Of a DNA stretch of 64,000 nucleotides, positions 12,708 through 48,433 are shown piece after piece; the stretch's first letter is position 1; every line of letters begins with the position of its first letter. The translations under genes and the position numbers were made by a program. Location: positions 188,373 to 252,372 of the IMG/VR virus record IMGVR_UViG_3300021254_000021. The stretch is one strand, 5' to 3'. This stretch comes from a virus (taxonomy: Duplodnaviria > Caudoviricetes). The notes beneath the pieces are model-generated. The model worked only from the letters and a program-made list of their open reading frames with translations. It searched no databases and was not told where the DNA came from.

Positions 12708-12887
12708 ATGTCCCTTTTTAAAATTTACCTCCTCTTAATTTAAAGACTTTCACAGTTACGGGCATAGTGGTTTAATCCTCTATGCCCTTTTTTATTCACC
12801 CAATCCTTCACACAGTCCATTAAGGGGATAAGGAATTAAGTAAAATTCCCCTGATAGTAATTTTACAAAAATATTTAAGGAGACTGT

Positions 12888-13160
12888 GTGATGTCAGATT
12901 ATTTAAAAGAGTGTGCGGACAAGGCGGTGATGGTATTCAAGGCAAACGGTATTAAATCAGAACATTACCCTTCTTTACTTGAATCCTTATTTAAGGATAT
13001 GGAGCTTATTTATCATGGGATAAGTAAAGAGCAGGTAGATGAATTAAAGGGGTTTGGTTTTGACTTATATAAAATGAATATGGATGAGCGTAGAAGCATT
13101 CTTTTCCAGATGTCCCTTTGCAGGGTACTTTGTCACCTGAATGAAAAGATAAAAGGTTAA
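12888..13160 (+). CDS. hypothetical protein
   Basis: behind repeat element + RBS. Confidence 0.7.
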   Translation: MMSDYLKECADKAVMVFKANGIKSEHYPSLLESLFKDMELIYHGISKEQVDELKGFGFDLYKMNMDERRSILFQMSLCRVLCHLNEKIKG

Positions 13161-13247
13161 AGTTTTGCTTAAATAAGGCTTACAGAGATTTGGGAATTAT
13201 TCCTTTATCTCTTATTTAACAGACCAACTTTAAAAAAGGAGAGAGCG

Positions 13248-13622
13248 ATGAGTAAAACAAGACAGGCAGTAGTAATCCCCGTTTCATTAAAAGACAAACC
13301 TTATGTCACTACCATAAAGGATCATTATACAGCCTATTATCCGATTATTGGTTGTCGTTGTTTCGACATGGTAGAGTTGTGGGAGAAGGGTCATAAATCA
13401 GTGGATTGTTATGTGGATGATGAGGGTATGATTAACGGTTCACCAGTCAATGAGTATTGGCTTAGGGCGTACCAATTGGGTATTGTAAACAATCCTTTGT
13501 TTGGTATCTGTGTCATTACCATGACGGACACAAATACGGGAGATTCCACAGAGACGGATTTAAACCTTGTTAAAGAGGTGTTAAGAAGATACGGGTTTAC
13601 CCGAGACGAACTTTCCTTTTAG
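13248..13622 (+). CDS. hypothetical protein (DUF3846-like)
   Basis: IIGC..FDMV, YVDDEG..NGSPVN, LFG pattern. Confidence 0.55.
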   Translation: MSKTRQAVVIPVSLKDKPYVTTIKDHYTAYYPIIGCRCFDMVELWEKGHKSVDCYVDDEGMINGSPVNEYWLRAYQLGIVNNPLFGICVITMTDTNTGDSTETDLNLVKEVLRRYGFTRDELSF

Positions 13623-13749
13623 AAGGAATGTCACATTAAGTCCCAAAATGTCCACTCTGACAGAAAAGGGGATGAGGAAATTTTCCAAAGTCCCCTGAGA
13701 GCAACTTTACAAAAATATTTGGCCAATCTTTCTTTAAGGGAGACATATT

Positions 13750-14010
13750 ATGGAAGGTATCACTGTTAATGGTAAAGAATACAGCTCTTATGAAGTGTCA
13801 ACCATGTGGAAACTTACTCATTTAAGTGCGGAGCTTAGTGAGTTGGCGAAACATTCCAAGAATGAATCTGTTTTGAGACAGTGCGAAAAAGTACTTATGG
13901 AACTGAATCGTTTACACTTTTGTGACTTTGAAGAAGAATCAAAACCTGAGTATGAACCATTTAGAGCAGAATACCTTAAATGTTGTGAGGCAATAAATAG
14001 TTGGAAGTAG
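13750..14010 (+). CDS. hypothetical protein
   Basis: behind repeat element + RBS. Confidence 0.7.
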   Translation: MEGITVNGKEYSSYEVSTMWKLTHLSAELSELAKHSKNESVLRQCEKVLMELNRLHFCDFEEESKPEYEPFRAEYLKCCEAINSWK

Positions 14011-14098
14011 TAACCTTATTAGGGATAAGGAATAATTCCTTATCCCCCACACATCAATTTTACAAAAATATTTGACCAACTTTAAAGGAGACTGTGTT

Positions 14099-14656
14099 AT
14101 GGCGAAAGACATCAATAATAAAGAAATCGTGTCTGGTTATGTTGTAGAGATTAAAGGTGCTTACAGCAAATTAGATAATGGTTTGTGGTATGTTGACCAT
14201 TCTTCTGACAGAGGGGTCTGGTTACACAAGTTAAATAAGGATATGAGCAAGAGCAAAGGTAAAAATACCTGTACAGGTTGGCCCCTCCGTTCATACAGCA
14301 ATAACCGTTACAAACGTTGTGAGATTAACGAGTATAATGAGGCCAATGCCACAATAGAGATGCTTTGTCCTTATGTAGAACCTACTCCGAAACCAGTGAG
14401 CAATGAAATTAAGATTTTAAAGAAAGGGATTCGGAAAGGTGATAAATACTATCCATGCTATTACTGGAAAAACAGTGATGGCACTGTGACTGTCTATGCA
14501 AAAGACTATGGCTATGACGGCCTTCCCAGTGGTTTGGGTAATGTCATCAATGAATCAAACGGACAAATCGACTACTTTGAGAAAAGCCACTGTTATTTAA
14601 AGGAAGGGGATAGATACTATAATGAAGTGATGGCTGTTGTTACCAAACACTCTTAA
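14099..14656 (+). CDS. hypothetical protein, paralog of 15487-16032
   Basis: shared DNGLW, HKLNKDM, LCPYVEP.PKPVSN.IKI, CYYWK, DYFE. Confidence 0.75.
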   Translation: MAKDINNKEIVSGYVVEIKGAYSKLDNGLWYVDHSSDRGVWLHKLNKDMSKSKGKNTCTGWPLRSYSNNRYKRCEINEYNEANATIEMLCPYVEPTPKPVSNEIKILKKGIRKGDKYYPCYYWKNSDGTVTVYAKDYGYDGLPSGLGNVINESNGQIDYFEKSHCYLKEGDRYYNEVMAVVTKHS

Positions 14657-14761
14657 ATAAGGCTAACATTAAATAAGGAACATTTTTTGTTCCTTATTTA
14701 ATTCTTTCTTTTTCCTTTTATGTCCCTTATTGACCGACTCTTAAATAAAGGAGACTGAATT

Positions 14762-15019
14762 ATGTTGAGCAATCCCCATCAGGTAATGGAAAGACTGAAT
14801 GCTTTAGCACCTAATATCGGCCTTAGTCACTGTGACAAAAAGAGTATGATTGATCCAGAGCTGTTTATGATAGGAATGTTTGTTATAGACATAACAGCAT
14901 TGGGTGAATGGATGGAAAAGAATTACCCCGAGTATCTGGAAAAATCATTGCACGATTTCCTTATGGATAAAGACCCAGATCATATAGAGGAATGGAAGGA
15001 GTTACTGGGTGTTATGTAA
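14762..15019 (+). CDS. hypothetical protein
   Basis: strong RBS. Confidence 0.65.
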   Translation: MLSNPHQVMERLNALAPNIGLSHCDKKSMIDPELFMIGMFVIDITALGEWMEKNYPEYLEKSLHDFLMDKDPDHIEEWKELLGVM

Positions 15020-15103
15020 CCAATAAGGGGATAGAAAAGTTAAGTTAAATCCCCACAGACCAACTTTATAAAAATCTTTAACCAATCTTTAAAGGAGAAT
15101 GTT

Positions 15104-15400
15104 ATGTCGTCATTTAATCGTACTTTAATTATTGGCCGTGTAGACTGTAAACCCAAGTTAAAGAGAGATGGTAACATGGAGTATGCAGATTTTAACATCA
15201 TAACCACTGTAACTTCAGGTGATAAAACGGAAAGCATGGCACATCCAGTTCGTTGTTATAGCAGACAAGCTGTTTTGTGTAATGAGAATTTGGATAAAGG
15301 TGACTTATGCTGTGTTGAGGGTAGGCTGACTGATGAAAACTATGAGGACAAACTAAAACAGGTTATTGCTGAGAAAGTTGTATTCATAAGGAAGAAATAG
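15104..15400 (+). CDS. ssb: single-stranded DNA-binding protein (OB fold, no acidic tail)
   Basis: FNRTLIIGR...L.KGDL..VEGRL...VIAEKV.F. Confidence 0.8.
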   Translation: MSSFNRTLIIGRVDCKPKLKRDGNMEYADFNIITTVTSGDKTESMAHPVRCYSRQAVLCNENLDKGDLCCVEGRLTDENYEDKLKQVIAEKVVFIRKK

Positions 15401-15486
15401 AGTCTTAAAGGGGATGGAGTTAATCACTTAAATCCCCTAACGCCAATTTTACAAAAATATCTAACCAATCTTTAAAGGAGACAGCT

Positions 15487-16032
15487 ATGAACGACAGCTT
15501 TGGTAATGAAATTCAGGTGGGTATGGTTGTTGAGATTTCTGATTCCTGCATTAAGGGAGATAATGGTCTTTGGGTAGTTACCAGTGTGTACACCAGTGAG
15601 GCATACTGCCATAAACTGAATAAGGATATGCGTAAAGCTAAAGACGGCCCTCACACCACCGTCAGTTGGCCTCTGCATACTTATCTCAATGACCCATACA
15701 AAAGACATGAGGCTAACCGTTATAATGAAGAACATGCACGTATCCGTGTCCTATGCCCTTATGTTGAGCCTGCACCGAAACCTGTAAGTAATGATATTAA
15801 GATTCAGAAAAGAGGGATTAAGAAAGGCAACTCTTTCTGCTCCTGTTATTACTGGAAAGGCCGTGACGGTAGCATTTACATTTCAGCAAAACACTATAAC
15901 GAACATATCCCTAGAGAACTTGGCAATGTCAAAAATGATTCCGATGCCATGACCGATTACTTTGAGACGGACAGCTTAGTCCTTACCACGGAAAGTCCAT
16001 ACTATCAGGCGGCATTAAGATGCTGTAAATGA
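15487..16032 (+). CDS. hypothetical protein, paralog of 14099-14656
   Basis: see paralog. Confidence 0.75.
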   Translation: MNDSFGNEIQVGMVVEISDSCIKGDNGLWVVTSVYTSEAYCHKLNKDMRKAKDGPHTTVSWPLHTYLNDPYKRHEANRYNEEHARIRVLCPYVEPAPKPVSNDIKIQKRGIKKGNSFCSCYYWKGRDGSIYISAKHYNEHIPRELGNVKNDSDAMTDYFETDSLVLTTESPYYQAALRCCK

Positions 16033-16444
16033 ACAAAATTAAATTAGTCACTTCCCCTAAGACTGAGGGAAATTTAATTCATTGATTGCCCTAAGATACT
16101 GATTAATTAACCAGTATCTTAGCTTTTCTTTGAATATTCCTTATTTACTGTCTTTTAAATAAGGACATAAAAGTTTAGTATTACTAAAACTGAATTAAAT
16201 TTTTCTTGATCTTAGGGCAATATGTTAATTTGGTTTGGTCTAATATAAGATTGTGCTTAATTAAAGTCATCTATTTTGTCTAAAGGCTGTATTTAATTTA
16301 ACTCATCTGAGTGTGTTACCTAAATGAAAAGATAGGGATTTAGAATTGGGTTAAGTGTGAGATGTAAAGGGGATGGAGATGGTTGTTTAAGTCCCCTCGA
16401 ACCAACTTTACAAAAATCTTTGACAATTTTATAGGAGACTGAAT

Positions 16445-17341
16445 ATGAGTAAAGCACAGGATAAGGCCAAATCGTTCATTAAGAAATATTGTCGTGTTTA
16501 TGGCAATGGTGTTTCCTTTAACAAAGAGGATGGTTGTTTCTGTAGTTGGTTGGAGATAGAGTCGAAACAGGATAATTATTCCAAGTTAGACTGGTGGGAG
16601 AGAAATGAATCTTTCTCTATTCGTCTGCATGTGCAAGATGCTATCTTAGTTGTGGATGGTAAGATTGAGAATACATTGAATGCTGACTCTTTAAAAGACC
16701 TCATTATAGATGGGATAAAAGAGATGCGTGATACATTCTCTTTTAAGTCTGAGTGCTTCGACACTATGCTTTCCCATATAGGTATAACAGAGAATGAATG
16801 CGTATCTGTTATGGCAGAGTTATTCTTGGATAAATGTGTATCTGTGATGAACAAATCTTTTCCTGTTACCCAGAGGGCTTATGACAGATGGGTTGAGAAG
16901 GGATGTAAGCAGGAAGCTAAAAAAGAGCGTATAGCGTCCGTCTTTGGTAAAGATTTCGAGGAAGCTCTTACGAACGGCATTGCCTCTTTCCATGATGCCT
17001 ATATAGAGAGTAAAATAAAGATGCTCTTTGCATTCTTTAAACAGCAGTATGGTGGGTTTACCCGATACACAGATGATGAGTTAAAAGAGAAGGCCAGTAG
17101 AGAGGCCGAGGAAACATGGGGGTTTTGGTTAAAGTTTGAGGTGATTGGGATTACTGACATCCTCTTACGGTATGATGTTGGTAAATGCACCCACTACGAT
17201 TTACAGTTCGATAATACCTGTATGAAGGTGGAAGGTGACATCTTTGGTGATACAGGAAAACGTCTTCATTTCCACACCATATTTGCGGGCGGCTATAACA
17301 TTCAGTGCTTGCACACTAGAACGATAGCTCACGTGTTCTAA
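16445..17341 (+). CDS. hypothetical phage protein
   Basis: C-terminal TIFAGGYNIQCLHTR motif of a type common in phage proteins. Confidence 0.7.
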   Translation: MSKAQDKAKSFIKKYCRVYGNGVSFNKEDGCFCSWLEIESKQDNYSKLDWWERNESFSIRLHVQDAILVVDGKIENTLNADSLKDLIIDGIKEMRDTFSFKSECFDTMLSHIGITENECVSVMAELFLDKCVSVMNKSFPVTQRAYDRWVEKGCKQEAKKERIASVFGKDFEEALTNGIASFHDAYIESKIKMLFAFFKQQYGGFTRYTDDELKEKASREAEETWGFWLKFEVIGITDILLRYDVGKCTHYDLQFDNTCMKVEGDIFGDTGKRLHFHTIFAGGYNIQCLHTRTIAHVF

Positions 17342-17405
17342 TCCGTATATTCCCCTACTTATGGGGAATATATTTTGACCAGCTTTTACAAAAGGAGACT
17401 GAACA

Positions 17406-17723
17406 ATGTTCTGTATGGAAAATGCGACTGAAGCAGAGTGCCAAGAGTTTATTAACTGGGTAAAAGAGAATTATGCTACGGATGATCCTGAGAAAAAAGA
17501 GGCTGTGGAGATTCTTAGCAGATACTATGTTACAAGAGCTTTACCCTTATGCGGGATGAAGTCATGGTTTAAGAGGGATTATGCTAGATTCTGTAACGGC
17601 GATAAGTATGCAGTAGAGAGGCACAAACGAAAGGAGTATGTCCCTGTTTACCATGATTCTACGAATGGTAAAATCAACGATCCTTCTTGGAGAGGCCCAA
17701 ACGGTAATTGGTCTTTAGACTAA
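17406..17723 (+). CDS. hypothetical protein
   Basis: strong RBS. Confidence 0.65.
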   Translation: MFCMENATEAECQEFINWVKENYATDDPEKKEAVEILSRYYVTRALPLCGMKSWFKRDYARFCNGDKYAVERHKRKEYVPVYHDSTNGKINDPSWRGPNGNWSLD

Positions 17724-17771
17724 CTTAAAACCTACTCTAAAGAGTGGGTTGTTTTATATAAGGGGAAAGCA

Positions 17772-18305
17772 ATGAGTAAAGACACAGAGATATTAGGGTT
17801 CTGCCCAGGCTTTTGTTTTGGTACAATCTTAATGCGTAGTTCCCATGAGGGATTCTATTATAATTCTATTAAAGAGATTCTTAAAAAAAGAAGGTTTTAT
17901 CTGGTTACTGTGGGGGATGAGGAAGATGAGGAAACATTCTTTATTAAAGGCAGGGAGTTATTTACCCTTTACTTTGTACCTCAAGGCTATCAGATACTTA
18001 GAGGATCTGATTTGGAGCGAGAGATACAGGAACAGATGAGCGAGGAGGATTCATCCAATTTTCATCACGTGTTTGGCTGTTCCAACTTCTACAGCACACA
18101 CTTTCGGGATTTAACTATTGGTGTGCCCTACAGGTATATCAACGAGATACCCAATACATTTACGTCTTTGCAGGAATGTGTGGAATCTATCAAACCCCTA
18201 GGAAAAGAGATAAGGATTTATTGTTTACATACATCCAATAAGCCTTATAGCCTAGAGGAGATAATCCATTATGGTCACACTGCGACGAATAACAGAGAAG
18301 AATGA
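17772..18305 (+). CDS. hypothetical protein, paralog of 31043-31573
   Basis: shared GDEEDEETF.IKGREL.TLY and KPL...HTS..PY.LEE. Confidence 0.75.
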   Translation: MSKDTEILGFCPGFCFGTILMRSSHEGFYYNSIKEILKKRRFYLVTVGDEEDEETFFIKGRELFTLYFVPQGYQILRGSDLEREIQEQMSEEDSSNFHHVFGCSNFYSTHFRDLTIGVPYRYINEIPNTFTSLQECVESIKPLGKEIRIYCLHTSNKPYSLEEIIHYGHTATNNREE

Positions 18306-19119: not shown

Positions 19120-19226
19120 GCTATTCCCTTTAAACGAGGAATATTTCGGATACATAGTATTATGGGGTATGCTTAGATTAAGCATACCCCATTTGTTTTT
19201 ACTGGGATTTAACAGAGGCGAACGGT

Positions 19227-19262
19227 AAATCCCACGAGGCTTTAGCCTCGTGAATAGTTCAC
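19227..19262 (+). mobile_element. IS200/IS605 right-end palindrome remnant
   Basis: CCCACGAGGCTTTAGCCTCGTGAATAGTTCAC directly before the ligase RBS. Confidence 0.7.
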
Positions 19263-19277
19263 AAAGGAGAATGAATA

Positions 19278-21656
19278 ATGGCATTAGAGACACAGCGTAC
19301 TTTACCACAACTGAAAGCTGAATGTTTGCAGAAGGGAATAAATGTTGTTATAGAAGGGAAAAAGGAACATAAAGAGGATTATGTAAAAGCTCTTAGAAAT
19401 TACTGGTTAAACAAGTATTATGACTCACCAGAGAATGCACCTTGGGCACTTAAATTTATGCTGAATGAAATAGATTGTCCTATGCTCTGTAAGAGGTTTA
19501 AACAGTGCAAACCAGAGGTGCAGAAAAGAATGTTTGAATCGGATGAGTATATAGCTGAGGAGAAAATAGATGGTTGTTTCTCTTATAATACAGGAGTTCT
19601 TCTATCTGATGGTACTACAAGATCTATAGGAGAGATTGTAGAAAAGCGTTTACCTGTAGAGGTAATGTCTTTTGATGAAATAACTGGTAAACTTGTTCCT
19701 AGACAAGTAGTTAATTGGTTTAATCATGGTCAAAAAAAAGTATCTCAATGGGTGAAAATGAGTAGTACTGGAGGTAATTCCGTCCCTTTAAGGAATTTAT
19801 CTCAACAAGAAAATTTTATTACAAAAAACCATATTATTTATTCCGATGGTGCTTGGAAAAGTGTAATAGAATCTGACCATATAACTAGAGTTTTGCCTTC
19901 AATGAATCTTACTCAATTACAAGTTATGTATGGTTCCGTTCTAGGTGATGGAACATGTGCATTTTCTACTGATAAAGATGTTAATGCTTATTATGAGTTT
20001 TGTAATTCAGAGAAGCAAAAAGATTACTTTGATAAAAAAGTACAACTTTTTATAAAAATGCCGAATAAATTACAGACAAGGGTGAGTGGTTATGGTTCAA
20101 CTATGTATTCTTGTCGTTTAAATGCTTGTAAAGAAGCCACGGAGCTTCATCATTTAGGTTATGTTAATAAAACTAGGAGAGTTACTAAAGAATACCTAGA
20201 TAGAATGGATCTTTTAGGTCTTACTATATGGTATTTGGATGATGGCTCTCGAAATAAAAGTAGGGATGAGCATACTTGTAAAATAACAAATAAATACTCA
20301 AGAGTTACTTTTTCAGCATACCGATATAATGAAGATGATGTGAAAATAATTGTTTCATGGTTGAATGCTAGAAATTATGGTGCTTCTTTCCACATGACTA
20401 CTAGGAAAGGAAATAAATTAGGATATATTATTAACTTATCTTCTATGGGTAGTCAGAAGTTTTTTAAAGATATAGCTCAGTATGTACCAGAATCAATGGC
20501 TTATAAGATTCCACCAGAGTTACAGAAAGAGTGTGGGAAAGTGGAATGGTGGAGAGATTCTAAATTAGAATATATTTATGATTCTGTTCCTGTAAAATGG
20601 AAAAGTCATAAATCAGAGAATAGAATATGTTCCTCTACGAATGCTTATGATATTGAAGTGGATGGAAACCATAGTTATGTTGCTAATGGTATTATTGTTC
20701 ATAATTCTCGTAGTTTGATTATTTGGGATGCTTCAACACAATCCTTCGACTTCTATTCCCGTAACAACTCTGTCAAAGACTTTTTACCTCAGTCATATAA
20801 AGATACTGTTTTAGTAACTTCTAAAGGTTTTACTTATCCAGAGAACTTTGTATTAGACTGCGAGGTTATTTCTACTAATCCAAACATCTCTACTGTAATG
20901 GGGAAAAGAGGGGTCGTATGTGCAACACAGCTTCAAGCAACCACAGCTTTATTAGCCCTTAATCCAGAGGACTCCAAAGCATTGCAAAGAAAAGATCCAT
21001 TAAAGTTTATTATCTTTGACTGTCTTTATGATGGAGAATCTTTAATTAATAAACCTTGGAAAGAAAGACATCCTCATGCAGAAAAGTTAGCCTCTTTGCT
21101 TAAACAGTCTGGATTTACCTGTGATATAAACCCAGTAGTAAGAGAGAATAAATTAGAGTTTTATTCCGACTTAATTGAACAAGGAAAAGAAGGTTGTGTG
21201 TTTAAAAGAATTGATGCACCTTATCATGGATGTACAAGCAGGACGGATGATCAGGTTAAGTTAAAAAGAACGGTGGCAGAAGGGCTGAATAAAGACTTGG
21301 ATGCTTGGGTTACAGGTTTTATTCCTTCTACACAGGATAAAGGATGGTCTAATTATATTGGAGCTTTAGTCTTTTCCTGTAAGGTGCAGATGAAGGATGG
21401 GACAATAAAGGATCATGTTATTGGTGTTTGCTCTGGTATTCCTTTTGAGTTAAGAAAGGCAGCAACCATTTATATTGATGATAAGCCCAGTCTAAACCCC
21501 GACTTCTTAGGAAGGGTTGCAACATTAAGTGGACAGAATATCAGTGCAAGAAAACTAGCTTTGACTCATGCTGTAATACAGTGTTGGCGTCCAGATAAAG
21601 ATCCAGATGGATGTGAGATTTTAACAGAAGAAGAATTATTATCGTTGGTATTTTAA
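19278..21656 (+). CDS. ATP-dependent DNA ligase with intein
   Basis: motif I EEKIDG|SR after intein removal, III VLDCE, IIIa FIIFD, IV EGCVFK, V VKLK, VI WRPDK. Confidence 0.9.
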   Translation: MALETQRTLPQLKAECLQKGINVVIEGKKEHKEDYVKALRNYWLNKYYDSPENAPWALKFMLNEIDCPMLCKRFKQCKPEVQKRMFESDEYIAEEKIDGCFSYNTGVLLSDGTTRSIGEIVEKRLPVEVMSFDEITGKLVPRQVVNWFNHGQKKVSQWVKMSSTGGNSVPLRNLSQQENFITKNHIIYSDGAWKSVIESDHITRVLPSMNLTQLQVMYGSVLGDGTCAFSTDKDVNAYYEFCNSEKQKDYFDKKVQLFIKMPNKLQTRVSGYGSTMYSCRLNACKEATELHHLGYVNKTRRVTKEYLDRMDLLGLTIWYLDDGSRNKSRDEHTCKITNKYSRVTFSAYRYNEDDVKIIVSWLNARNYGASFHMTTRKGNKLGYIINLSSMGSQKFFKDIAQYVPESMAYKIPPELQKECGKVEWWRDSKLEYIYDSVPVKWKSHKSENRICSSTNAYDIEVDGNHSYVANGIIVHNSRSLIIWDASTQSFDFYSRNNSVKDFLPQSYKDTVLVTSKGFTYPENFVLDCEVISTNPNISTVMGKRGVVCATQLQATTALLALNPEDSKALQRKDPLKFIIFDCLYDGESLINKPWKERHPHAEKLASLLKQSGFTCDINPVVRENKLEFYSDLIEQGKEGCVFKRIDAPYHGCTSRTDDQVKLKRTVAEGLNKDLDAWVTGFIPSTQDKGWSNYIGALVFSCKVQMKDGTIKDHVIGVCSGIPFELRKAATIYIDDKPSLNPDFLGRVATLSGQNISARKLALTHAVIQCWRPDKDPDGCEILTEEELLSLVF
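19575..20705 (+). mobile_element. intein (377 aa) with LAGLIDADG homing endonuclease
   Basis: starts CFSYNTGVLLSDG, ends YDIEVDGNHSYVANGIIVHN followed by Ser; GSVLGDG and WYLDDGS blocks. Confidence 0.93.
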
Positions 21657-21672
21657 CATGATATGAACTAAG

Positions 21673-21705
21673 AAAAAGCCCTCTATAAAAGAGGGCTTTT
21701 TCTTT
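21673..21705 (+). terminator. intrinsic terminator
   Basis: AAAAAGCCCTCT...AGAGGGCTTTTT. Confidence 0.8.
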
Positions 21706-21761
21706 TCCCAAATCCCCCTCAGATCAACTTTACAAAAATCTTTTACCAAGGAGACTGTCTT

Positions 21762-22259
21762 ATGTCCTATTACAACAGAGAATTAGATTGTGCTTTACGT
21801 CGTTACAAACAGAGCAAGGCAAATATTAAAGACCTTTATTATAGAGAGCTATTAACCTTTAAGAAGGATTACACCCAACAAAATAAAGTGGAGAGATGGG
21901 AAAGTCTGTATGATATAATTCTACTAAGCTATGAGGAAACAAGGAATAAGAAATCAGATGTTTTCTTATTCCTTGTCTCACGTTTTCCAGATGGTGCAGA
22001 TGGTTATTCCTTTGTAATGACACACCAAGACCAGATTGTAGGTAGCCTGTCTTTATTTGGCATTAAAGATTTTCAGTTTGTCTATGCTGATTGTAGTTCC
22101 GTGTTTGCAGACTATGGAGTCAGCCTTTCTTTTCTGCATACAGAATTTGTATCTAATTATGGGGTGCTAGGTAAAGGAAAGGTAACTTTGGAAGATGGAG
22201 TGATACAGATTCATGGTGAAGTTAATACGGAAAACATACTTGGAGGCCAAAAAGCCTGA
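21762..22259 (+). CDS. hypothetical protein
   Basis: behind repeat element + RBS. Confidence 0.7.
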   Translation: MSYYNRELDCALRRYKQSKANIKDLYYRELLTFKKDYTQQNKVERWESLYDIILLSYEETRNKKSDVFLFLVSRFPDGADGYSFVMTHQDQIVGSLSLFGIKDFQFVYADCSSVFADYGVSLSFLHTEFVSNYGVLGKGKVTLEDGVIQIHGEVNTENILGGQKA

Positions 22260-23229: not shown

Positions 23230-23322
23230 CGAATGAGCCATGACCAAGTATAAGGGGATAGAGATCCTTACTCAATCCCCCGCACACCAATTTTACAAAA
23301 CTTTTTGGACCAAGGAGTAAAA

Positions 23323-24090
23323 ATGAAAGGGGCAATTATTGGTGACATTATCGGTTCTGTTTACGAGTTTGATAACACCTTTGACTACAACTTTCCTCTT
23401 TTAACAGAGTATTCCACCTTTACAGATGATACCATTTGTACCGTTGCAATAGCAGATGCATTGTTAAATAAAAAGCCGTATGCACAGACCTTAAAGGAAT
23501 GGTGCAGACAGTACCCGAATCCTAAAGGTGCTTATGGTACAATGTTTCAAGACTGGATTTGGTCTGATAACCCAAACTACCATACCAACAGTTTTGGCAA
23601 CGGGGCTTTAATGAGAATATCCTCATTAGGATTAATCAATGTTTCCCCACAGCAGGCTTTCTTAAATACACAACAGGCCACCACCTGTTCTCATGATCAC
23701 CCAATAGCTCTGTCTTATGCCATCACTTATATAAGGATTCTACGTCGTCTCAGACTGTATAAAAATAAAAAGATTGCGGTAGAGACCATGATAGATTCTA
23801 TTGGAAAGAGATGGGATAAGGAGATACCAACTAAAGGGACATTTACAGATACTTGTCAGAACACCCTTCCTCTGGCTGTCTCTTTATTCCTAGAATCACA
23901 GAACTTTGAAGATGCAATAAGACTGGCTGTTTCCTATGGTGGAGACTCTGATACATTGGCGGCGATTGTCGGCGGTATGGCAGAGGCATATTATGGTGTA
24001 CCTGACAGTCTTTGGGATAAAGTAAAAGACTTGTTACCTGAATCAATGCTTACAATCATTGATCAATTTTATAATACTTATTCCATTTAA
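23323..24090 (+). CDS. ADP-ribosylglycohydrolase (DraG/ARH family)
   Basis: GAIIGDIIGS, FTDDT, SFGNGALMR, SH, GGDSDT. Confidence 0.92.
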   Translation: MKGAIIGDIIGSVYEFDNTFDYNFPLLTEYSTFTDDTICTVAIADALLNKKPYAQTLKEWCRQYPNPKGAYGTMFQDWIWSDNPNYHTNSFGNGALMRISSLGLINVSPQQAFLNTQQATTCSHDHPIALSYAITYIRILRRLRLYKNKKIAVETMIDSIGKRWDKEIPTKGTFTDTCQNTLPLAVSLFLESQNFEDAIRLAVSYGGDSDTLAAIVGGMAEAYYGVPDSLWDKVKDLLPESMLTIIDQFYNTYSI

Positions 24091-27150: not shown

Positions 27151-27211
27151 AATAATCAGTCTGCTCCGTATATAACCCCAATGAATCTAATTCATTGGGG
27201 TTTTCTTTTAT

Positions 27212-28056: not shown

Positions 28057-28066
28057 GAGGTAGAAC

Positions 28067-28769: not shown

Positions 28770-29378
28770 ATGTTAGACGTAATGCAGGAAGCAGACTTAA
28801 TTCGTCGTGTTGCTAGAAAAGTATATTGGAACTCTAGGTATGCACGGTTGCGTACCCAGATTGATGAGGAAGATTTAATACAAATGGTTTTCCTCAAACT
28901 CTTACACCGTGACAATTATAAAAAGTATTCAGACAAATATCCTAAAGTTGGTTTTATTTATCGTGTAGCAAACGGTTGTGCTATATCTTTTGCAAATAAA
29001 TGTTCTAATATTCGTGAGTGGACTGTTTTGGATCAGCCTAGAGATAGTGATGATGATTCCAGAACAATCTTAGAGATATTATCCACAGAGACAGATGTAC
29101 AACATCTCGACTTGGATATGCAGTATCGTATAAACAGGTTATCCGCGAGCATGGACCCCGAGGTTAATCAGCAGATTGTTATACGTCATAATGATGTAGA
29201 CACTCCATTTTCCATAGAAGCTCTTTTCGATTTCTTTATTAAAACACACTATTCGAGAAAAGAGATTATGCCGTGTATAATAAACTTAAAGACGAATGCA
29301 CCAGTTACACAATCCACCTTTGATAAGTGGTGGAAAATATTAGAGAATACAGCCAAGCAGGAATTAAGCAGAATGTAA
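28770..29378 (+). CDS. sigma-70/ECF-like RNA polymerase sigma factor
   Basis: region-2-like DEEDLIQMVFLKL...FIYRVA.N. Confidence 0.6.
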   Translation: MLDVMQEADLIRRVARKVYWNSRYARLRTQIDEEDLIQMVFLKLLHRDNYKKYSDKYPKVGFIYRVANGCAISFANKCSNIREWTVLDQPRDSDDDSRTILEILSTETDVQHLDLDMQYRINRLSASMDPEVNQQIVIRHNDVDTPFSIEALFDFFIKTHYSRKEIMPCIINLKTNAPVTQSTFDKWWKILENTAKQELSRM

Positions 29379-31042: not shown

Positions 31043-31573
31043 ATGATTTGGAGAGAATCAGTACAGGTTGGTTTAGTGTTTGGTACATTGTTAATGCGGG
31101 CAAACAATGATAAGGTTTATCCTAAATCTATCTCAAACACCCTTTTAAAAAACCGTCTTTATTTACTTTCTATCGGGGATGAGGAAGATGAAGAAACGTT
31201 TTGGATTAAAGGTAGGGAATTGGCAACTCTGTATGCAGACCAAAAAGGTTTTAGAGTTTTGGCTGATTCACCTTTAGGTAGTTTAATCTCGAATGTGATT
31301 AAAGAGGAAGATGCAGAAGCGCTAAACAAATACAGCTCGGATCCTTATCGTAATGTGGATGATCTTTCCTTCCATCACCCTAAGATGTCAGACAGACTGT
31401 TTTTAAACACCTTAAAAGAAACGGTGTTTCCGACAATGGATGCATTATTTGATTTTGTTAAGCCTTTATGTAAAGCAATAACCATGTATCGTATTCACAC
31501 TTCCCCGATCCCATACTACCTAGAGGAAGTAAAAAGTTATTGCACGTCTAGTACCAATAATGTATCGTTTTAG
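31043..31573 (+). CDS. hypothetical protein, paralog of 17772-18305
   Basis: RBS AGGAG; paralogy. Confidence 0.75.
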   Translation: MIWRESVQVGLVFGTLLMRANNDKVYPKSISNTLLKNRLYLLSIGDEEDEETFWIKGRELATLYADQKGFRVLADSPLGSLISNVIKEEDAEALNKYSSDPYRNVDDLSFHHPKMSDRLFLNTLKETVFPTMDALFDFVKPLCKAITMYRIHTSPIPYYLEEVKSYCTSSTNNVSF

Positions 31574-31651
31574 GGGATTGAATTAATCCTTCAATCCCCC
31601 TGAGATCAATTTTACAGAAATTTTTAACCAACTTTTAAAAAGGAGTTGACC

Positions 31652-32476
31652 ATGTGCGGACTTACAGGAATCATTTTTGGTAAACATTCACGTTCATTTG
31701 ATGACTATGAGGAATTGAAGGAAATCTTTACTTCAATGTTTATCCTCTCTGAGCAAAGAGGCCGTCATGCCTCTGGTTTGGCTACACTGGATACCACAGG
31801 TAAAACACACCTTTACAAACTTCCTGTCCCACCAACTAGAATGGTTAATTTAGCAGGGTTTAATAAAATCCTTAATACGGTAAACAATAAAACAACTCTC
31901 TTAATTGGCCATTCCAGATGGAAAACGGTTGGGTCTGAGTATAACAATAATAACAATCAGCCAATTATTTCTGGATCAATCTTGGGTACACACAATGGGA
32001 CAATCTCTAATGCCACAGCTCTTTTTGCTCGTTATCAGCTAAAGAGATTGGCCGAGGTTGACTCCGAAGTTCTTTTCCGTATGGCAGATGCTTCTTTACA
32101 GGAAGGAACATTAAACACTGTGACCTACAAGAATTACTTGGCAGAGTGTCAAGGTGATCTTTCATGTGTCTTTGCCTCTAAGGCAGACCCAAAGTGTGTG
32201 TACTTATTTAAAGGATCTAAACCACTATTCCTCTATTACAATCCTCGTTTGCAGGTAATTATTTATTCATCTAATGATGCTTACATTGATGCTTCAATCG
32301 TGGATTCAGATGGTTGGTTTCCTTTAAAGATGCCCGAAAACAGAATGTATCAGACTTGCTTTGACGACTTTAAAAATGTTGTCTCTGACTCATTTACCTT
32401 TATGCGTAATCAGCCTATAAGCAATTACGTCAAAAAGAAAAGTAAACCACAGCGTTCCCTCTTTGTTGAATATTAG
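31652..32476 (+). CDS. class II (Ntn) glutamine amidotransferase
   Basis: N-terminal MCG, RG..ASG, GHSR..T.G, N.QP, HNGTI.N, DSE. Confidence 0.9.
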   Translation: MCGLTGIIFGKHSRSFDDYEELKEIFTSMFILSEQRGRHASGLATLDTTGKTHLYKLPVPPTRMVNLAGFNKILNTVNNKTTLLIGHSRWKTVGSEYNNNNNQPIISGSILGTHNGTISNATALFARYQLKRLAEVDSEVLFRMADASLQEGTLNTVTYKNYLAECQGDLSCVFASKADPKCVYLFKGSKPLFLYYNPRLQVIIYSSNDAYIDASIVDSDGWFPLKMPENRMYQTCFDDFKNVVSDSFTFMRNQPISNYVKKKSKPQRSLFVEY

Positions 32477-32545
32477 GGGATAGAGAATTTAACTTAATTC
32501 CCCTCGAACCAATTTTACAAAAATCTTTCACAAAAGGAGTTGAAG

Positions 32546-33127: not shown

Positions 33128-33281
33128 GTGTGTCACCTAAATGAAAAGATCAAAAAGTTAAATTAAGGTATAGAGGCTCTGCTAAGATTTAGCAGAGCCT
33201 CTTCTTTTAAGGGGATGAAAAAGTTAAATTAAATCCCCTCGAACCAACTTTACAAAAATCTTTGACCAAAAGGAGTTAGCT

Positions 33282-33731
33282 ATGACTATGAATGAAACAT
33301 TGAAACAGGCGATTGCAGGATTTGTTGCTCTTAATGGTGCTTCCTTAAATTCAGAGGAAGGTGAACAATGGGCAAGTGAGTATGGCTTAGATGTTTCTGA
33401 CTATAGCAATAAAGAAGAAATCTCATCCTTCTTTAAGGCTATTACATCCTTTGACAAGGATGATAAGTACATCTCACAAGATTTCCTTATCCGTAATTGT
33501 CCCGTAGTTACTCCAGATTCCTATTATGTTTCCCTATTTAAGAAGTTTGAGATTAAGCGAGTGGTTATGACAACGGAAACAAAATCTTGCTTAATTTCAT
33601 CCCTTATGGTTAATGGCTATAAGGCAGAGTCCGTTAAGATTGAACTCACAAAGTCTTGGGGAGAGGATAATTATTGGGCTGATCGAAATAAAGCTCAATA
33701 CGGACATGGTATTCTGCTGACAATCGACTAA
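33282..33731 (+). CDS. hypothetical protein
   Basis: behind repeat element + RBS. Confidence 0.7.
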   Translation: MTMNETLKQAIAGFVALNGASLNSEEGEQWASEYGLDVSDYSNKEEISSFFKAITSFDKDDKYISQDFLIRNCPVVTPDSYYVSLFKKFEIKRVVMTTETKSCLISSLMVNGYKAESVKIELTKSWGEDNYWADRNKAQYGHGILLTID

Positions 33732-33811
33732 CCCATTAAGGGGATGGGGAATTAAGTTAAATTCCCCTGACACTAAATTTACAAAAATCTTTGACCAAAA
33801 GGAGTTTAGTT

Positions 33812-34153
33812 ATGGCACAGTTCAAAACACAGGCTCAGTTAGTTTCTGCTCTCCGTGAACAGCTCTCCACCAATACTTCACAAGCTCTGAAAGCTCTGGT
33901 TTTCCTGTTTAATCGTCAAACAGAAGATGAGAAATTACATGAGCATACCAAGTACTTTAACACTGTTGGCTTCAATCACAATGATGCCAAGCGGCTTACA
34001 GCAATGGCCAAACAGTATTTGGCCACGGGACATCTCACCTCTTATCAGATGGTTGTTTTAATGAGGCTCGTTCCTAAGTATGCCCGTCAACTTATCCTTC
34101 ATTCCTTAGCCACAGGGAAAATCCGAAAGGAAAATGGGTATTATGTGTGGTAG
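33812..34153 (+). CDS. hypothetical phage protein
   Basis: RQT.DE...T...N.VGF...DA..L...KYARQL pattern. Confidence 0.7.
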   Translation: MAQFKTQAQLVSALREQLSTNTSQALKALVFLFNRQTEDEKLHEHTKYFNTVGFNHNDAKRLTAMAKQYLATGHLTSYQMVVLMRLVPKYARQLILHSLATGKIRKENGYYVW

Positions 34154-34345
34154 TTAGAGGGAAGGAAATTCCTTCCCTTTTCCCCTCACACCAAATTTAC
34201 AAAAATTTCTCTTAAAAAGTTTCAACTTTTACCCTAGCGGTTATTCGTTGGGGTGATGGTTAAAGCCTTTTAAGGGGATAGAGTTAATTCCTTAAATCCC
34301 CTCGAACCAATTTTACAAAAATTTCTTTTCCAAAAGGAGATAGTT

Positions 34346-36107: not shown

Positions 36108-36154
36108 TTTAATTCCCCCCATGTATGGGGGGACACTACATACATGGAGCAAGT

Positions 36155-36476
36155 GTCAACTACCAACCCGCTAAAGCGGGTTGGCTTGTAACTGACCTGT
36201 AGCTCTTGATCGAGTTTTTGAGACTCTACTACGTTTTTTACCAATCTTCTTTTCAGTAGATTGGCTGTCGTTACATCGTGGGGTGATTGACTGCACCCCG
36301 TAGGCTTAAAACATGTTTAAGACCCACTTAAACTTGAATCTTGGTGTTTAAGTTTAGAGAGTGCCTTCAGTCCAAGTACCAAACGGTTTTCTCCCTAAAT
36401 AAATTTTTTACTTGACTTAAAGATTTAAGTCAAGTTTTTACATTCCTCTCACGTGGCTAAAGTCATGTGGGTTTTC
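36155..36476 (-). mobile_element. non-autonomous IS200/IS605 derivative (no ORF), probably retaining a TnpB omega/reRNA scaffold
   Basis: GTCAACTACC-AACCCGCTAAAGCGGGTT end and CATTCC-TCTCACGTGGCTAAAGTCATGTGGG end; internal hairpins. Confidence 0.65.
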
Positions 36477-36489
36477 AACGAGGGTTCTT

Positions 36490-37377: not shown

Positions 37378-37468
37378 GGGATAAAGTTAAATCCTTAAAT
37401 CCCCTGACACCAACTTTATAAAAATTTTCCCCCTAAATGGGGATGTCTCCCTTTAAAGGAATTGAAAC

Positions 37469-37729
37469 ATGACAAAAAGCCTAAACGTTGAAATCTTTAA
37501 TAACAACACTTTCCTTCAGTGGTTTCCTGCTACATCCATTAAAGATGTACTGAGCTTTATTGCTAGGTATGAAAAGATAGAGCGTATGTCTGACATTAAA
37601 CTTTCTTATCTGGTTTTTCAGCAATCGAACAATGGTAGGTATAAAGGTCTTTCTGGCCGTTACACAAAAGTGTGTAGCATTCATGCTACGGGTAACGAGA
37701 AACCCAAATTCTTTGATTTGATTCAGTAG
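37469..37729 (+). CDS. hypothetical protein
   Basis: RBS AAGGA; behind repeat element. Confidence 0.6.
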   Translation: MTKSLNVEIFNNNTFLQWFPATSIKDVLSFIARYEKIERMSDIKLSYLVFQQSNNGRYKGLSGRYTKVCSIHATGNEKPKFFDLIQ

Positions 37730-37816
37730 AGACCATTAAGGGGATAAAGTTAATTCCTTAAATCCCCTGAGACCAATTTTACAAAAATCTTTAACCAACT
37801 TTAAAGGAGAAAAAAC

Positions 37817-37975
37817 ATGACAGTAAAAGAGTTGATTGAAATCTTAAAAACATTTAACGAAGATTATGAAGTTGTTGGGCCATGTAAAGATGGTTCTGAA
37901 TGGATTCAATGTGAAATGTGTGAATCTGATTTTACACAGGATGACAACGAAAAGGTAATGTACATTTCAAAATAG
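37817..37975 (+). CDS. small hypothetical protein (52 aa, MTVKELIEILK...)
   Basis: read from sequence; strong RBS AAGGAG; below ORF-track cutoff. Confidence 0.7.
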   Translation: MTVKELIEILKTFNEDYEVVGPCKDGSEWIQCEMCESDFTQDDNEKVMYISK

Positions 37976-39067: not shown

Positions 39068-39392
39068 GTAATTCCCCCATATAGGGGGATGTTCCTTTGG
39101 ATTCTCACTGAGTTTCCTTATGAAATCCGTAATTCCCCCATATAGGGGGATGTTCCCCTGCGGACAAACGCTTTGTGGTGCGTGTGCATTAGTAATTCCC
39201 CCATATAGGGGGGATGTTCCTATTATGGCTAGGACGGAAGCAATGTCCTTATAGTAATTCCCCCATATAGGGGGATGTTCCCAAGTTAGGTATGTGCTGT
39301 TTTCGTGGTAACAAGTAATTCCCCCATATAGGGGGATGTTCCTAGATTCTACCTAGATATTTTTAGTGTAATTCCCCCACACATAGGGGATC
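39068..39392 (+). CRISPR. CRISPR array 1 (type I-E), repeat GTAATTCCCCCATATAGGGGGATGTTCC
   Basis: repeats at 39068, 39129, 39192, 39254, 39315, degenerate 39368; spacers 33, 35, 33, 33, 25 nt. Confidence 0.97.
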
Positions 39393-39408
39393 TTTATTTG
39401 GAGGTTAT

Positions 39409-40822: not shown

Positions 40823-41073
40823 GTATTTCCCCCGTACAGGGGGATGTTCCTTAGTGGGCACTGAAAAAATATCTTTTTAATAAGTATTTCCCCCGTACAG
40901 GGGGATGTTCCTGTTCGCACCGTTTATAAATAAAGCTGTAATCGGTATTTCCCCCGTACAGGGGGATGTTCCTTTAAGGGTCGAAATGCCTTTAGTGCAA
41001 GGTGCGTAATTCCCCCTATATGAGGGATGTTCCTTTTCGACATTAATAATTCCCCCATATAGGGGGATGTTCC
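40823..41073 (+). CRISPR. CRISPR array 2, repeat GTATTTCCCCCGTACAGGGGGATGTTCC
   Basis: repeats at 40823, 40884, 40945, variants 41006, 41046; spacers 33, 33, 33, 12 nt. Confidence 0.97.
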
Positions 41074-41104
41074 GGGAGAGTTTCCATTTTAAAGGAGTTT
41101 AAAC

Positions 41105-41914: not shown

Positions 41915-41917
41915 AAT

Positions 41918-41981
41918 AAAACTCATTAAATTCAATGCTTGAATAAATAGGAAACGTAGATTCTACCTAAGAAATTTTAGT
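41918..41981 (+). promoter_or_regulatory. CRISPR leader 3
   Basis: identical to leader 1. Confidence 0.85.
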
Positions 41982-42129
41982 GTATTTCCCCCCCCCATAT
42001 AGGGGGGGATGTTCCTGATGCGTCCAGTGCATCATTATCTCATTTTTAGTGTATTCCCCCTATACAGGGGGATGTTCCTAGCGTTGCGGTAGACCTGATT
42101 AGTGATTTCCCCTATATGGGGGATGTTTT
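41982..42129 (+). CRISPR. CRISPR mini-array 3
   Basis: repeats at 41982 (expanded C9/G7 runs), 42051, degenerate 42102; spacers 35 and 23 nt. Confidence 0.9.
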
Positions 42130-42179
42130 GCTGTAATTAAATCCCCACAGACCAACTTTACAAAAATTTGGAGAGACTT

Positions 42180-44417: not shown

Positions 44418-44468
44418 ATTTGAGGATTGTGTAAATAGAAACCGAGATTCTACCTAAGAATTTTTAGG
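44407..44468 (+). promoter_or_regulatory. CRISPR leader 4
   Basis: closest to leader 2. Confidence 0.85.
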
Positions 44469-44741
44469 GTATTCTCCCTATACAGGGGGATGTTCCTAAC
44501 CCGTAAGTGTTGGGATCGGTTCGTTACACGTATTCCCCCTATACAGGGGGATTTTCCTCTTAGTGAGGTATGAGAATGAATGAATTTGACGTATTCCCCC
44601 TATACAGGGGGATGTTCCGGTGATGCCAAAGCTGAAATAAAACTAAAGAATAGTATTCCCCCTATACAGGGGGATGTTCCTAGACTTCCCAGTCTTTCGC
44701 GTTTCACACCTTTGTACTTTCCACTGTACGGGGGATGATAA
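44469..44741 (+). CRISPR. CRISPR array 4, repeat GTATTCCCCCTATACAGGGGGATGTTCC
   Basis: repeats at 44469, 44530, 44591, 44653, degenerate 44714; spacers 33, 33, 34, 33 nt. Confidence 0.97.
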
Positions 44742-44774
44742 AAGTATTTAACCAACTTTAAAAGGAGACAAGCA

Positions 44775-47456: not shown

Positions 47457-47527
47457 TTGAGGGATGAAAAATCCGTTTCATTTCCCATGACACCAACTTT
47501 ACAAAAATTTTCCAAAAGGAGACAACC

Positions 47528-48103
47528 ATGAAAGGGACAAAACAGAATTTCATTAGAGTAAATCATAGAAAAGACATCACTCCATTGCAGGAAATGATGA
47601 TTGACCAATTCCTAGAGAGTACACATTCCAACCTAAAGGAAAGATCAAAGCAGACTTACAAGGTGGATCTTAGAAGCTATCTTCTTGGCGACAACAGAAA
47701 TGCAAGGTTAATTAAACGTTTTACAAATTGGCTTAGTCAAAACAGAATAACCTTGGTTGAAAGGAAGGTGACACCACAGGAAATTGAAGAGTTGACAAAC
47801 CTCTTAAACCGTATCTCTGATGTTTCCTCAAACAACACTATTGTTACTAAAGATGGAGACAAGGTTATGGGTAATTGGGTAAATGGAATACTGGGGATAA
47901 ACAAAGAGGAGATAGGGGAATACAAAGCCTTTACCTTCTGGGTTGATTATGGCGAGGAAGCAATACCCGAGAATTTCAGCATAGTGATTACCAAAGATAG
48001 TCTTTACAATGCCTTTATGGCAGAGATAACCTTACAGGAGATAAAAGATTTCATTAAAGACTTTAACGTAGTTGAGACAAACCCATTGTCCGATTACCTC
48101 TAA
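47528..48103 (+). CDS. hypothetical protein (N-terminus weakly like an integrase core-binding domain)
   Basis: F.....LKERSKQTY..DLR.YL; no catalytic domain seen. Confidence 0.6.
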   Translation: MKGTKQNFIRVNHRKDITPLQEMMIDQFLESTHSNLKERSKQTYKVDLRSYLLGDNRNARLIKRFTNWLSQNRITLVERKVTPQEIEELTNLLNRISDVSSNNTIVTKDGDKVMGNWVNGILGINKEEIGEYKAFTFWVDYGEEAIPENFSIVITKDSLYNAFMAEITLQEIKDFIKDFNVVETNPLSDYL

Positions 48104-48215
48104 CCTAAAGCCCCACTTTGTTGGGGCTTTTTTAGTTTAATGGGATGGAAAAAAGAATCATTCTCCCCTCGCGCCAATTTTACAAAAATATTTAACCAAC
48201 TTTAGAGGAGACACC

Positions 48216-48356
48216 ATGATTAAGAATACAGTTTTTGCTCTTTTCCTTATTGCTTGCCTCTTTGTCCTGTTCACCAATGTTGGTTTTGAGACAGCTCTGG
48301 CTATAGTAGGTAGGGGTCTGGATATGATGATTGCTTATGTCAGCCATATTCCCTAA
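48216..48356 (+). CDS. small membrane protein (46 aa)
   Basis: RBS GAGGAG; hydrophobic MIKNTVFALFLIACLFVLF. Confidence 0.6.
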   Translation: MIKNTVFALFLIACLFVLFTNVGFETALAIVGRGLDMMIAYVSHIP

Positions 48357-48433
48357 ATTGGGTATGTTCCTTTATGTGGGAGTTTCCTTTTTCCTGATTC
48401 CCCTTCGTACCAACTTTAAACTTTTTAAGGAGA

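Follow-up and report, generated by a model that had tools for sequence, protein, structure and literature searches.

A hairpin-and-box element heading accessory genes of a T4-like jumbo phage is probably a regulatory cassette junction

The final 64 kb of the 252,372-bp IMG/VR virus record IMGVR_UViG_3300021254_000021 contain some 20 copies of an intergenic element in which a hairpin with a G-rich and a C-rich arm is followed at a fixed distance by an A/T-rich box, and then by the Shine-Dalgarno (SD) sequence and the start codon of an accessory gene. These 64,000 nucleotides are called the window below, and coordinates refer to it unless marked as genome. The element is probably a composite intergenic regulatory junction between gene cassettes, a functional analogue of the promoter early and promoter middle stem-loops (PeSLs and PmSLs) of T4-type phages. 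Strain alignments show that recombination between copies has deleted, inserted or swapped the genes lying between them, each time leaving one hybrid element, and that this has been repeated in natural populations of the phage. As to expression, the reading that we favour, at about even odds, is that the box is a phage-specific, factor-dependent promoter of pre-late genes; a leader acting at the RNA level is its main rival.

By its protein matches the phage is a distant T4-like jumbo myovirus. The first 111 kb of the genome are occupied by large structural genes, including those of the tail sheath, the tape measure and a Gp23-family major capsid protein (family match with E 1.7e-38), and a T4_baseplate match accompanies that of the tail sheath. 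Essentially every gene of the genome is carried on the + strand. A 24-kb megablast against GenBank phages gave no match, and tRNAs were the only matches in an Rfam search.

Searched as GGGG-N20-CCCC, the dyad has 14 matches in the window, always on the + strand, where shuffles lead one to expect 0.3. For the 16-nt box, allowing up to 3 mismatches, there are 23 matches where 4.7 would be expected; 19 of the 23 are real elements, and these again lie on the + strand only. A covariance model of hairpin and box was trained on 27 copies and recovered 19 strong copies in the window (42-81 bits) and a weak one (48373-48430), all on the + strand; the copy at 21691, which had been excluded from the training, scored 42 bits. 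On the minus strand of the window the model gave only one partial match at chance level (14 bits, E 0.39). An earlier note on this DNA, made from the letters alone, had counted about 20 copies, in agreement with the 19 strong and one or two degenerate ones found by pattern and covariance model. The full-genome motif search that it had proposed gave 27 matches with at most 1 mismatch and 29 with at most 2, on one strand only, for a total of 29-30 copies; at no more than 1 mismatch, neither the reverse strand nor a reversed control pattern gave any match genome-wide. The non-structural half of the genome holds 28 of the 29 copies, which cluster at genome 112-115 kb and, in the window, at 12.8-16.4, 21.7-23.3, 31.6-34.3, 37.4-37.8 and 42-48 kb.

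The element is about 50-90 nt long, and its copies are co-oriented with the coding strand. Full copies are rigidly spaced, as the earlier note had stated, with a 28-nt dyad (GGGGAT..ATCCCC), 6 nt (TSASAC), the box CAAYTTTACAAAAAT and then NTTT. The dyad and box that it had described are thus real, but the conserved block is longer than it had seen: a stretch of about 30 nt with high information content extends unbroken from TCCCC to some 4 nt beyond the box, and information content is likewise high at GGGGAT. Similarly, the 20-nt interior that it had called variable is indeed only loosely patterned but is not random (RRAG..TTAA..CTTAA). In two copies (21691 and genome 158498) the 5' arm is missing and AAATCCCC is kept. 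A second conserved unit, ACCAAYTTTAAAGGAG, is present in about two thirds of the copies and is the ribosome-binding site of the next gene. The hairpins have a mean fold energy of -10.2 kcal/mol, compared with -2.8 kcal/mol for random 32-mers, as expected of stable polyG/polyC stem-loops.

The position between genes is equally constant. The box ends 12-43 nt before a start codon in 27 of the 29 copies, and the hairpin begins no more than 11 nt from the upstream stop codon in 16 of them; in four copies this stop overlaps or directly abuts the first G, and the TAG overlaps reported earlier at 31573 and 37377 are among the features that we could confirm. Copies head genes for SSB, a DUF3846 protein, an ADP-ribosylglycohydrolase (ARH), a GATase, a GGACT protein, an amidoligase and Cas8e, as well as many ORFans, and no copy was found inside a gene. 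The left edge of the element is rich in TAA and TAG. A TAA, TAG or TGA directly precedes or overlaps the first G in 25 of 27 aligned copies (e.g., 15016-15030 and 37730-37743), and the sequence GTAACCWWTAA, which holds stop codons in two frames, stands at the left edge of at least nine copies. The element may in this way supply its own stop codons to whatever open reading frame (ORF) gets joined upstream.

Contigs of near-identical strains were collected through exact and clustered protein look-ups and aligned to the window or genome, the flanking alignments having about 88-98% identity. Four indels, each of one or two genes, run cleanly from element to element, the longer allele having two flanking elements and the shorter one a single hybrid. 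In the first, contigs L176 and L192 carry an extra 88-aa ORF, and the element at 33740 of the window combines the hairpin of the left copy with the downstream part of the right copy. In the second, L187 is without the SSB gene and a 181-aa gene (window 15098-16367; elements 15027-16417), and its hybrid consists of the hairpin and linker of copy 15027, changing to copy 16369 inside CAACTTTA. In the third, L192 and L194 carry cassettes of 70 and 152 aa behind the element equivalent to 37740, each with its own upstream element, and the switch point lies at the SD. In the fourth, L319 has an extra 80-aa ORF between two elements where the genome has one, at 114114. These indels support the proposal of the earlier note that genes headed by the element are exchangeable cassettes, and the comparison of breakpoints in related phages that it had suggested points the same way: against the more distant contig L169, synteny breaks at 6 of 8 element junctions of the window and at 2 of 13 element-free ones (Fisher p 0.018, hand-curated). 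Homologs of 33812-34153 and of the 181/185-aa paralogs are found in other element-bounded slots in L174 and L172; in the window the two paralogs (14099-14656 and 15487-16032), a pair pointed out in the earlier note, are each headed by an element.

The switch points vary between events, falling in the box, the hairpin or the SD, which points to homologous and not to site-specific recombination and argues against a single cleavage site. Recombination between copies is to be expected, since about 30 co-oriented copies share 50-90 nt of homology. The phage encodes a RecA/UvsX-like gene, and most likely its own machinery of this type is used; ordinary homologous recombination between repeats suffices to explain the events.

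To find more distant relatives, exact-pattern scans of IMG/VR and JGI metagenome contigs were made for the box with or without CCCC, and they returned only chance single matches. Because the boxes of relatives have diverged, relatives were found through proteins instead: homologs of the sigma-like protein (ORF 28770-29378, with a weak resemblance to Sigma70_r2) led to syntenic contigs, while searches for related loci with the amidoligase and ORF 16445 found nothing. The sample names of the relatives look like rumen surveys. Four further lineages, with sigma-like proteins 72, 64, 55 and 47% identical to that of this phage, share the architecture. In all five lineages a G-rich arm and a C-rich arm ending in CCCC span 27-29 nt and are followed by 5-6 nt and an A/T box, which reads TTTAGAAAAAT in L169, TTTTCAAAAAT in L172, TTTACCAAAAT or TTTACTAAAT in L174 and CTTTCAAAAAT in L323, with AAAAT constant throughout. 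The 67 copies in relatives stand in a single orientation between stop codon and SD, and the covariance model built on this phage's copies, when applied to L169, L172 and L174, recovers 19 full-length copies there, none of them on the - strand. The arms differ in sequence between lineages yet remain able to pair, forming stems of 10-13 bp with fold energies of -16 to -20 kcal/mol, which favours a hairpin, a cruciform or a co-evolving binder. The dyad might also be a DNA site for a dimeric protein, as the earlier note had proposed. Slots before the amidoligase gene and after polA-N are conserved across lineages, and in L169 and L174 an element stands directly before the sigma-like gene. Another contig (L320; ENA NODE_1989) is 79-88% identical in nucleotides to the small-ORF block at genome 114.5-119 kb and has no element in its 8.8 kb; in a contig related to it, seen as a gene list only, the homolog of the 96-aa ORF lies about 4-5 kb downstream of a Gp23 capsid gene.

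The element was compared with the other expression signals of the genome. Sites of the sigma70 type show no enrichment (52 on the forward and 45 on the reverse strand, with 69-85 in shuffles; further scans gave 63 against 66 expected and 44 against 62 expected), and the promoter scans call no element as a sigma70-type promoter on the + strand. TTTACA was tried as a -35 and rejected: the absence of a -10 at 17 bp, correctly observed in the earlier note, holds for 16-18 nt, and transcription would have to start past the SD. A search of the genome for the late box of T4, TATAAATA, showed that it is not used there. A TATCTAyC-like motif precedes the structural genes by 20-60 nt and may be the late promoter of this phage in place of TATAAATA. 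With sigma70 sites unenriched, TATAAATA unused and TATCTAyC at the structural genes, the element is a signal class of its own. Its hairpin was also considered as an intrinsic terminator and rejected, since TSASACCAA and no T-run follows it and terminator scans call no element. Canonical terminators with a conserved GGCTTTTCTTTT-type tail are many in the genome. Many intrinsic-terminator hairpins with unrelated stems share the loop ATCTAAT (27174-27202, 11784-11830 and 63040-63080; genome 26026, 26913, 60622 and 71996), to which the TATCTAyC motif is related.

A promoter is the favoured reading of the box for several reasons. No RNA polymerase beta' domain was found in the phage, so that the host RNA polymerase is presumably the one it must use (a PF00940 search for a T7-like RNA polymerase was uninformative, its controls being silent). 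No other signal is abundant in the pre-late half, and several copies stand directly behind canonical terminators (at 33172, 48107 and about 21660, and also in L169 and L174). In those two contigs the element also directly precedes the sigma-like gene; the sigma-like protein is taken to be a late factor like gp55 of T4, and a late factor needs to be expressed before the late genes. Finally, AAAAT does not change over the five lineages, and AAATCCCC is retained where the 5' arm is lost. That the box is lineage-specific suggests a phage factor co-evolving with it. In such a promoter AAAAAT would be the -10, with the critical A-11 and T-7 present, and the AAATCCCC arm would lie near -30, where the MotA boxes of T4 lie; the midpoint of the whole dyad would then be near -41.5. 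The transcript would begin at about the A of RACCAA, with the ACCAAY leader as 5' untranslated region. The stem-loop could insulate the gene from transcription arriving from upstream, or attenuate that transcription, and each cassette would bring its own expression signal.

A number of observations weigh against the reading of the element as a promoter-bearing junction. The element has no -35, and AAAAAT as the -10 would be one choice among several. At least four copies (for instance 42153 before cas8e; genome 158532, 143924 and 115012) have an SD that starts 3-6 nt behind the box, and a start 7 nt past AAAAAT would cut or remove it there, which argues against the geometry proposed above. The supposed spacer, CAAYTTTAC, is the best-conserved part of the element, which is not what a promoter of the sigma70 type usually shows. 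A search for homologs of MotA and AsiA had no matches, but its control genomes were silent too, which makes it uninformative. Many terminators of the genome lead directly to an SD and ATG with no promoter, so that the order of terminator and then element is weak evidence; a custom detector meant to compare terminators upstream of elements with the background was too permissive, calling 93 of 151 background gaps. On the side of the junction, most strain-level indels are not at the element: they comprise three TnpB insertions, one IS607 unit, two inteins, the tRNA region, a cas7-cas6 block, a 335-nt non-coding segment upstream of polA-N, the loss of cas8e between CRISPR leader/array repeats, the loss of a 105-aa gene between two GACYAACTT-like motifs, and others.

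Several of these other mobile segments can be described from the same alignments. The TnpB (IS605/IS607-type) insertions vary between near-identical strains (L176 6725-8956, L189 2646-4619, L319 6288-7729 and genome 106956-108747), and one of them has replaced an element together with the start of the next gene. An intein with a LAGLIDADG endonuclease in the DNA ligase gene (window 19278-21656) is present in the window, L175 and L190 and absent from L176-L178, L187, L189 and L191. A segment of about 1 kb within a helicase-like ORF (genome 104159-105189) is absent from L319 and may be another intein.

The main rival, possible though less likely, is that the element acts at the RNA level instead, the hairpin and the A/U-rich box working as a leader within long polycistronic + transcripts. 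An endoribonuclease of the host or the phage could then process transcripts there, the hairpin shielding the 3' end of the upstream message, or the element could be a 5' stabiliser or a translation enhancer for the gene downstream; recombination between copies would be a by-product, as it also would for a promoter. The second unit, AACTTTAA followed by GGAG, may resemble the 'epsilon' translation enhancer of T7 gene 10. Such a leader would suit a genome transcribed in one direction with few sigma70-like promoters, and its geometry fits all copies, even those in which a promoter start would take the SD away, each being upstream of an SD at a distance of 3-30 nt, with the hairpin usually abutting the upstream stop codon. 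The preserved complementarity of arms that change between lineages, together with G-U pairs in several stems, would also be in its favour; however, G-U pairs are no commoner than A-C mismatches, the folds of the + strand are not significantly stabler than those of the - strand (p 0.11), and the copies of the genome covary weakly (75% of cells are paired, and 72% in shuffles). The strictly conserved 15-30 nt exceed what an RNase E or RNase Y site needs, and the strong terminators directly upstream of some copies would starve the element of transcripts. The architecture is also like that of the start-associated repeats of Cluster K mycobacteriophages, which their authors tie to translation initiation (PMC3203893).

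Explanations in which recombination is the function of the element fare worse. It is improbable that the element serves a dedicated cassette-exchange system of a lytic T4-like phage as its attachment site, the hairpin and CCAAYTTTA core being cut and rejoined by a phage protein outside the known recombinase families; if it did, promoter-bearing one-gene cassettes, including defence and CRISPR-Cas modules, would move between slots and between co-infecting phages. We give very little credence to a dedicated recombination site of the kind raised in the earlier note, with an attC-like hairpin and core at which a phage recombinase moves cassettes as circles. Hairpin structure and length are kept while the sequence varies, a conserved core adjoins the hairpin, one-gene cassettes are bounded by elements, two switch points fall in or beside CCAAYTTTA, and a deletion at 17386-17714 joins two GACYAACTT-like motifs with only about 13 nt shared. 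Yet the crossovers occur at varying positions, no tyrosine recombinase was detected (no PF00589 match in the genome, with controls working), and the sole serine recombinase sits within the IS607/TnpB unit. Moreover, the cassettes carry their own element and SD, unlike promoterless integron cassettes, some slots are kept over deep divergence as regulatory signals would be, and the RecA/UvsX-like gene could serve here, T4-type recombination needing less than 50 bp of homology (PMC2839356). Hardly credible, lastly, is a selfish or neutral repeat (miniature mobile or gene-converted) that plays no part in expression: the many copies, a box homogenised within each lineage and the association with variable genes would fit it, but all 29 copies and the 67 in relatives share one orientation and a fixed place between stop codon and SD, none is inside a gene, some slots persist between lineages with no more than 55-72% identity in their sigma-like proteins, and in the junction sequences that were examined no target duplications were seen at the flanks.

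The polA gene, whose split the earlier note had thought the cassettes might explain, is split in all lineages; its halves are adjacent in L172, four unrelated genes apart in L169 and separated by the cas cluster in this phage, and in L192 the gap is filled by small ORFs with no cas genes whatsoever. An element opens the gap in every lineage but L172, and the gap is, on these comparisons, a hot spot. Since the halves in L172 are already separate, adjacent ORFs with no element between them, the split predates the cassettes and is not explained by them. A structured non-coding segment of 335 nt upstream of polA-N (36154-36489) is precisely absent from L192; the gap at this site is 12 nt in L169, and L172 has there a different non-coding region of 228 nt with promoter-like boxes of the TTGAC type. 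The window's segment could represent a mobile non-coding RNA, or else a region resembling an origin.

Four small type I-E CRISPR arrays (39068-39380, 40823-41075, 41990-42130 and 44469-44690; 29-nt repeat, 61-nt period) lie each behind a conserved leader of about 70 nt and are interleaved with cas7, cas5, cas6e, polA-C, cas8e and cas3. L194 is without cas8e, and the cas-less L192 keeps a CRISPR remnant of two repeats. Bacterial genomes scanned for the core of the CRISPR repeat gave single chance matches only. The idea that the element is a CRISPR repeat or a Cas6e target was rejected: the array repeats read C5-loop-G5 and then ATGTTCC at a 61-nt period, whereas the element has its G-arm first and is aperiodic, and L192 keeps its elements without cas genes. 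Solitary hairpins resembling the CRISPR repeat (C-arm, loop, G-arm, ATGT) are found in 5' leaders at 37426-37450, genome 113777-113800 and 17350-17367, two of them directly after a box, and may represent decoy repeats or sites at which Cas6e processes mRNAs. In L172 a stand-alone Cas6e-like gene (3844-4401), 30% identical to the Cas6e of the window, is located between the genes for ARH and ligase, and the 20 kb of sequence covered contain no other cas gene.

The copies of the window are listed in Table 1. Contig ends at 32522 and 33263 were considered as ends of transcripts or of DNA and rejected, as short-read assemblies break at repeated k-mers.

Table 1. Copies and partial copies of the element in the window
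Position	Strand	Gene behind	Score or evidence	Remarks
12824-12872	+	ORF 12888-13160	61 bits	
13190-13247	+	DUF3846 gene		partial copy: short hairpin, CCAACTTTA, SD, no A-run box
13668-13716	+	ORF 13750-14010	69 bits	
14021-14069	+	185-aa paralog 14099-14656	covariance match	fully paired 11-bp stem
15027-15075	+	SSB gene 15104-15400	strain alignment, covariance match	left parent of L187 hybrid
15410-15458	+	181-aa paralog 15487-16032	strain alignment, covariance match	within segment missing from L187
16369-16417	+	ORF 16445-17341	strain alignment, covariance match	right parent of L187 hybrid
21691-21739	+	ORF 21762-22259	42 bits	no 5' arm, canonical terminator in its place, AAATCCCCC and box kept; downstream of ligase gene
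23254-23302	+	ADP-ribosylglycohydrolase gene 23323-24090	covariance match	
31573-31621	+	GATase gene	covariance match	upstream TAG overlaps first G
32476-32524	+	GGACT/GGCT gene	covariance match	6 short-read contigs end there
33211-33259	+	ORF 33282-33731		strong intrinsic terminator 33172-33202 directly before
33740-33788	+			hybrid element; in L176 and L192 an extra 88-aa ORF stands there between two elements
34158-34206	+		covariance match	no gene directly behind; next copy 116 nt on
34274-34322	+	amidoligase gene	covariance match	slot conserved in L169 and L174
37377-37425	+	ORF 37469-37729		directly after polA-N, whose TAG overlaps first G
37740-37788	+	ORF 37817-37975		L192 and L194 carry two extra cassettes there
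42119-42167	+	cas8e		5' arm is 3' half of last, degenerate CRISPR repeat
44740-44774	+	cas3		second unit alone (TTTAACCAACTTTAAAAGGAG leader)
47460-47508	+	ORF 47528-48103		after cas3; absent from cas-less L192
48141-48189	+	small ORF at about 48216		terminator 48107-48130 before
48373-48430	+	ORF 48434-48766	19 bits, E 0.027	degenerate copy: weak hairpin, CCAACTTTA, SD

The element shows how accessory and defence modules are packaged in this phage, with SSB, ARH, amidoligase and parts of the type I-E CRISPR-Cas system each headed by a copy, and the natural population variants catch the turnover of cassettes, in which one-gene cassettes are present or absent and junctions are hybrid. When phages of this group are annotated, it could serve as a marker for cassette boundaries and for early and middle transcription units. 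Since the box is not of the host type and is lineage-specific, it points to a phage-encoded transcription or RNA factor, for which the element could be used as bait.

Among known systems, integron attC sites share with the element a hairpin conserved in structure and not in sequence, an adjacent core and one-gene cassettes; here, in contrast, there is no integron-type integrase, crossover is not at a single point, and the cassettes have their own expression signals and SD. The start-associated sequences of Cluster K mycobacteriophages and their extended forms (SAS/ESAS; Pope et al. 2011, PMC3203893) are, in the section that describes them, an asymmetric box near start codons, often after an imperfect inverted repeat, in one orientation and only in the non-structural half of the genome, with a consensus that varies by subcluster. 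According to that section SAS contains the SD and lies 3-7 bp from the start, whereas our box is separate from the SD and ends 12-43 nt ahead of the start codon; those phages belong to an unrelated family with an unrelated host, and the section does not tie SAS/ESAS to cassette indels. The middle promoters of T4 that depend on MotA would be alike in having a weak -10, no -35 and a box near -30, and in preceding pre-late genes, in relatives including the gene of the putative gp55-like sigma-like protein; the box itself is unrelated to the Mot box TGCTT (PMC4122927).

The closest likeness is to the PeSLs, which were proposed in 2010-2014 as the engine of shuffling in the hyperplastic regions of T4-type phages, from the pairs RB49/phi1, T4/PST and KVP40/nt-1 (Arbiol et al. 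2010, PMC2839356; Comeau et al. 2014, PMC4122927). PeSLs are intergenic, reach from the upstream stop codon to the next SD and start, and have stems that are 'generally GGGG...CCCC'; they are concentrated in hyperplastic regions and flank indels, and mini-circles as well as promoter and terminator activity have been shown experimentally (PMC2839356, PMC4122927). Those of RB49 and phi1 are near-perfect sigma70 promoters, and those of T4 and PST read TTTACW-N17-TAYWAT, while a PmSL combines a stem-loop, an activator box and a -10, with a PmSL of the activator type in phage nt-1 (PMC4122927, PMC2839356). Our element has the same layout, from stop codon to polyG/polyC stem-loop to SD and start, in a phage with a T4-type capsid. 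It is likewise placed in hyperplastic, ORFan-rich regions and nearly absent from structural modules, it flanks insertions, deletions and replacements between close relatives, with a deletion leaving one recombinant element as in the four events above, and its consensus is lineage-specific. It differs in having no -35/N17/-10 arrangement of the sigma70 type, TTTACA being followed here by the A-run box and then by the second conserved unit, and in a hairpin length and hairpin-to-box spacing that are nearly fixed, whereas the stem-loops of PeSLs occupy five positions relative to the promoter. The activities and mini-circles of PeSLs are experimental, and the element described here is known from sequence alone. 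Because the sigma70-type promoter is absent, we count it as working like a PeSL, or like the PmSL of nt-1, and not as a member of the class. The logic of the PeSL would thus recur in an uncultured and very distant T4-like jumbo phage, in an unusually regular form.

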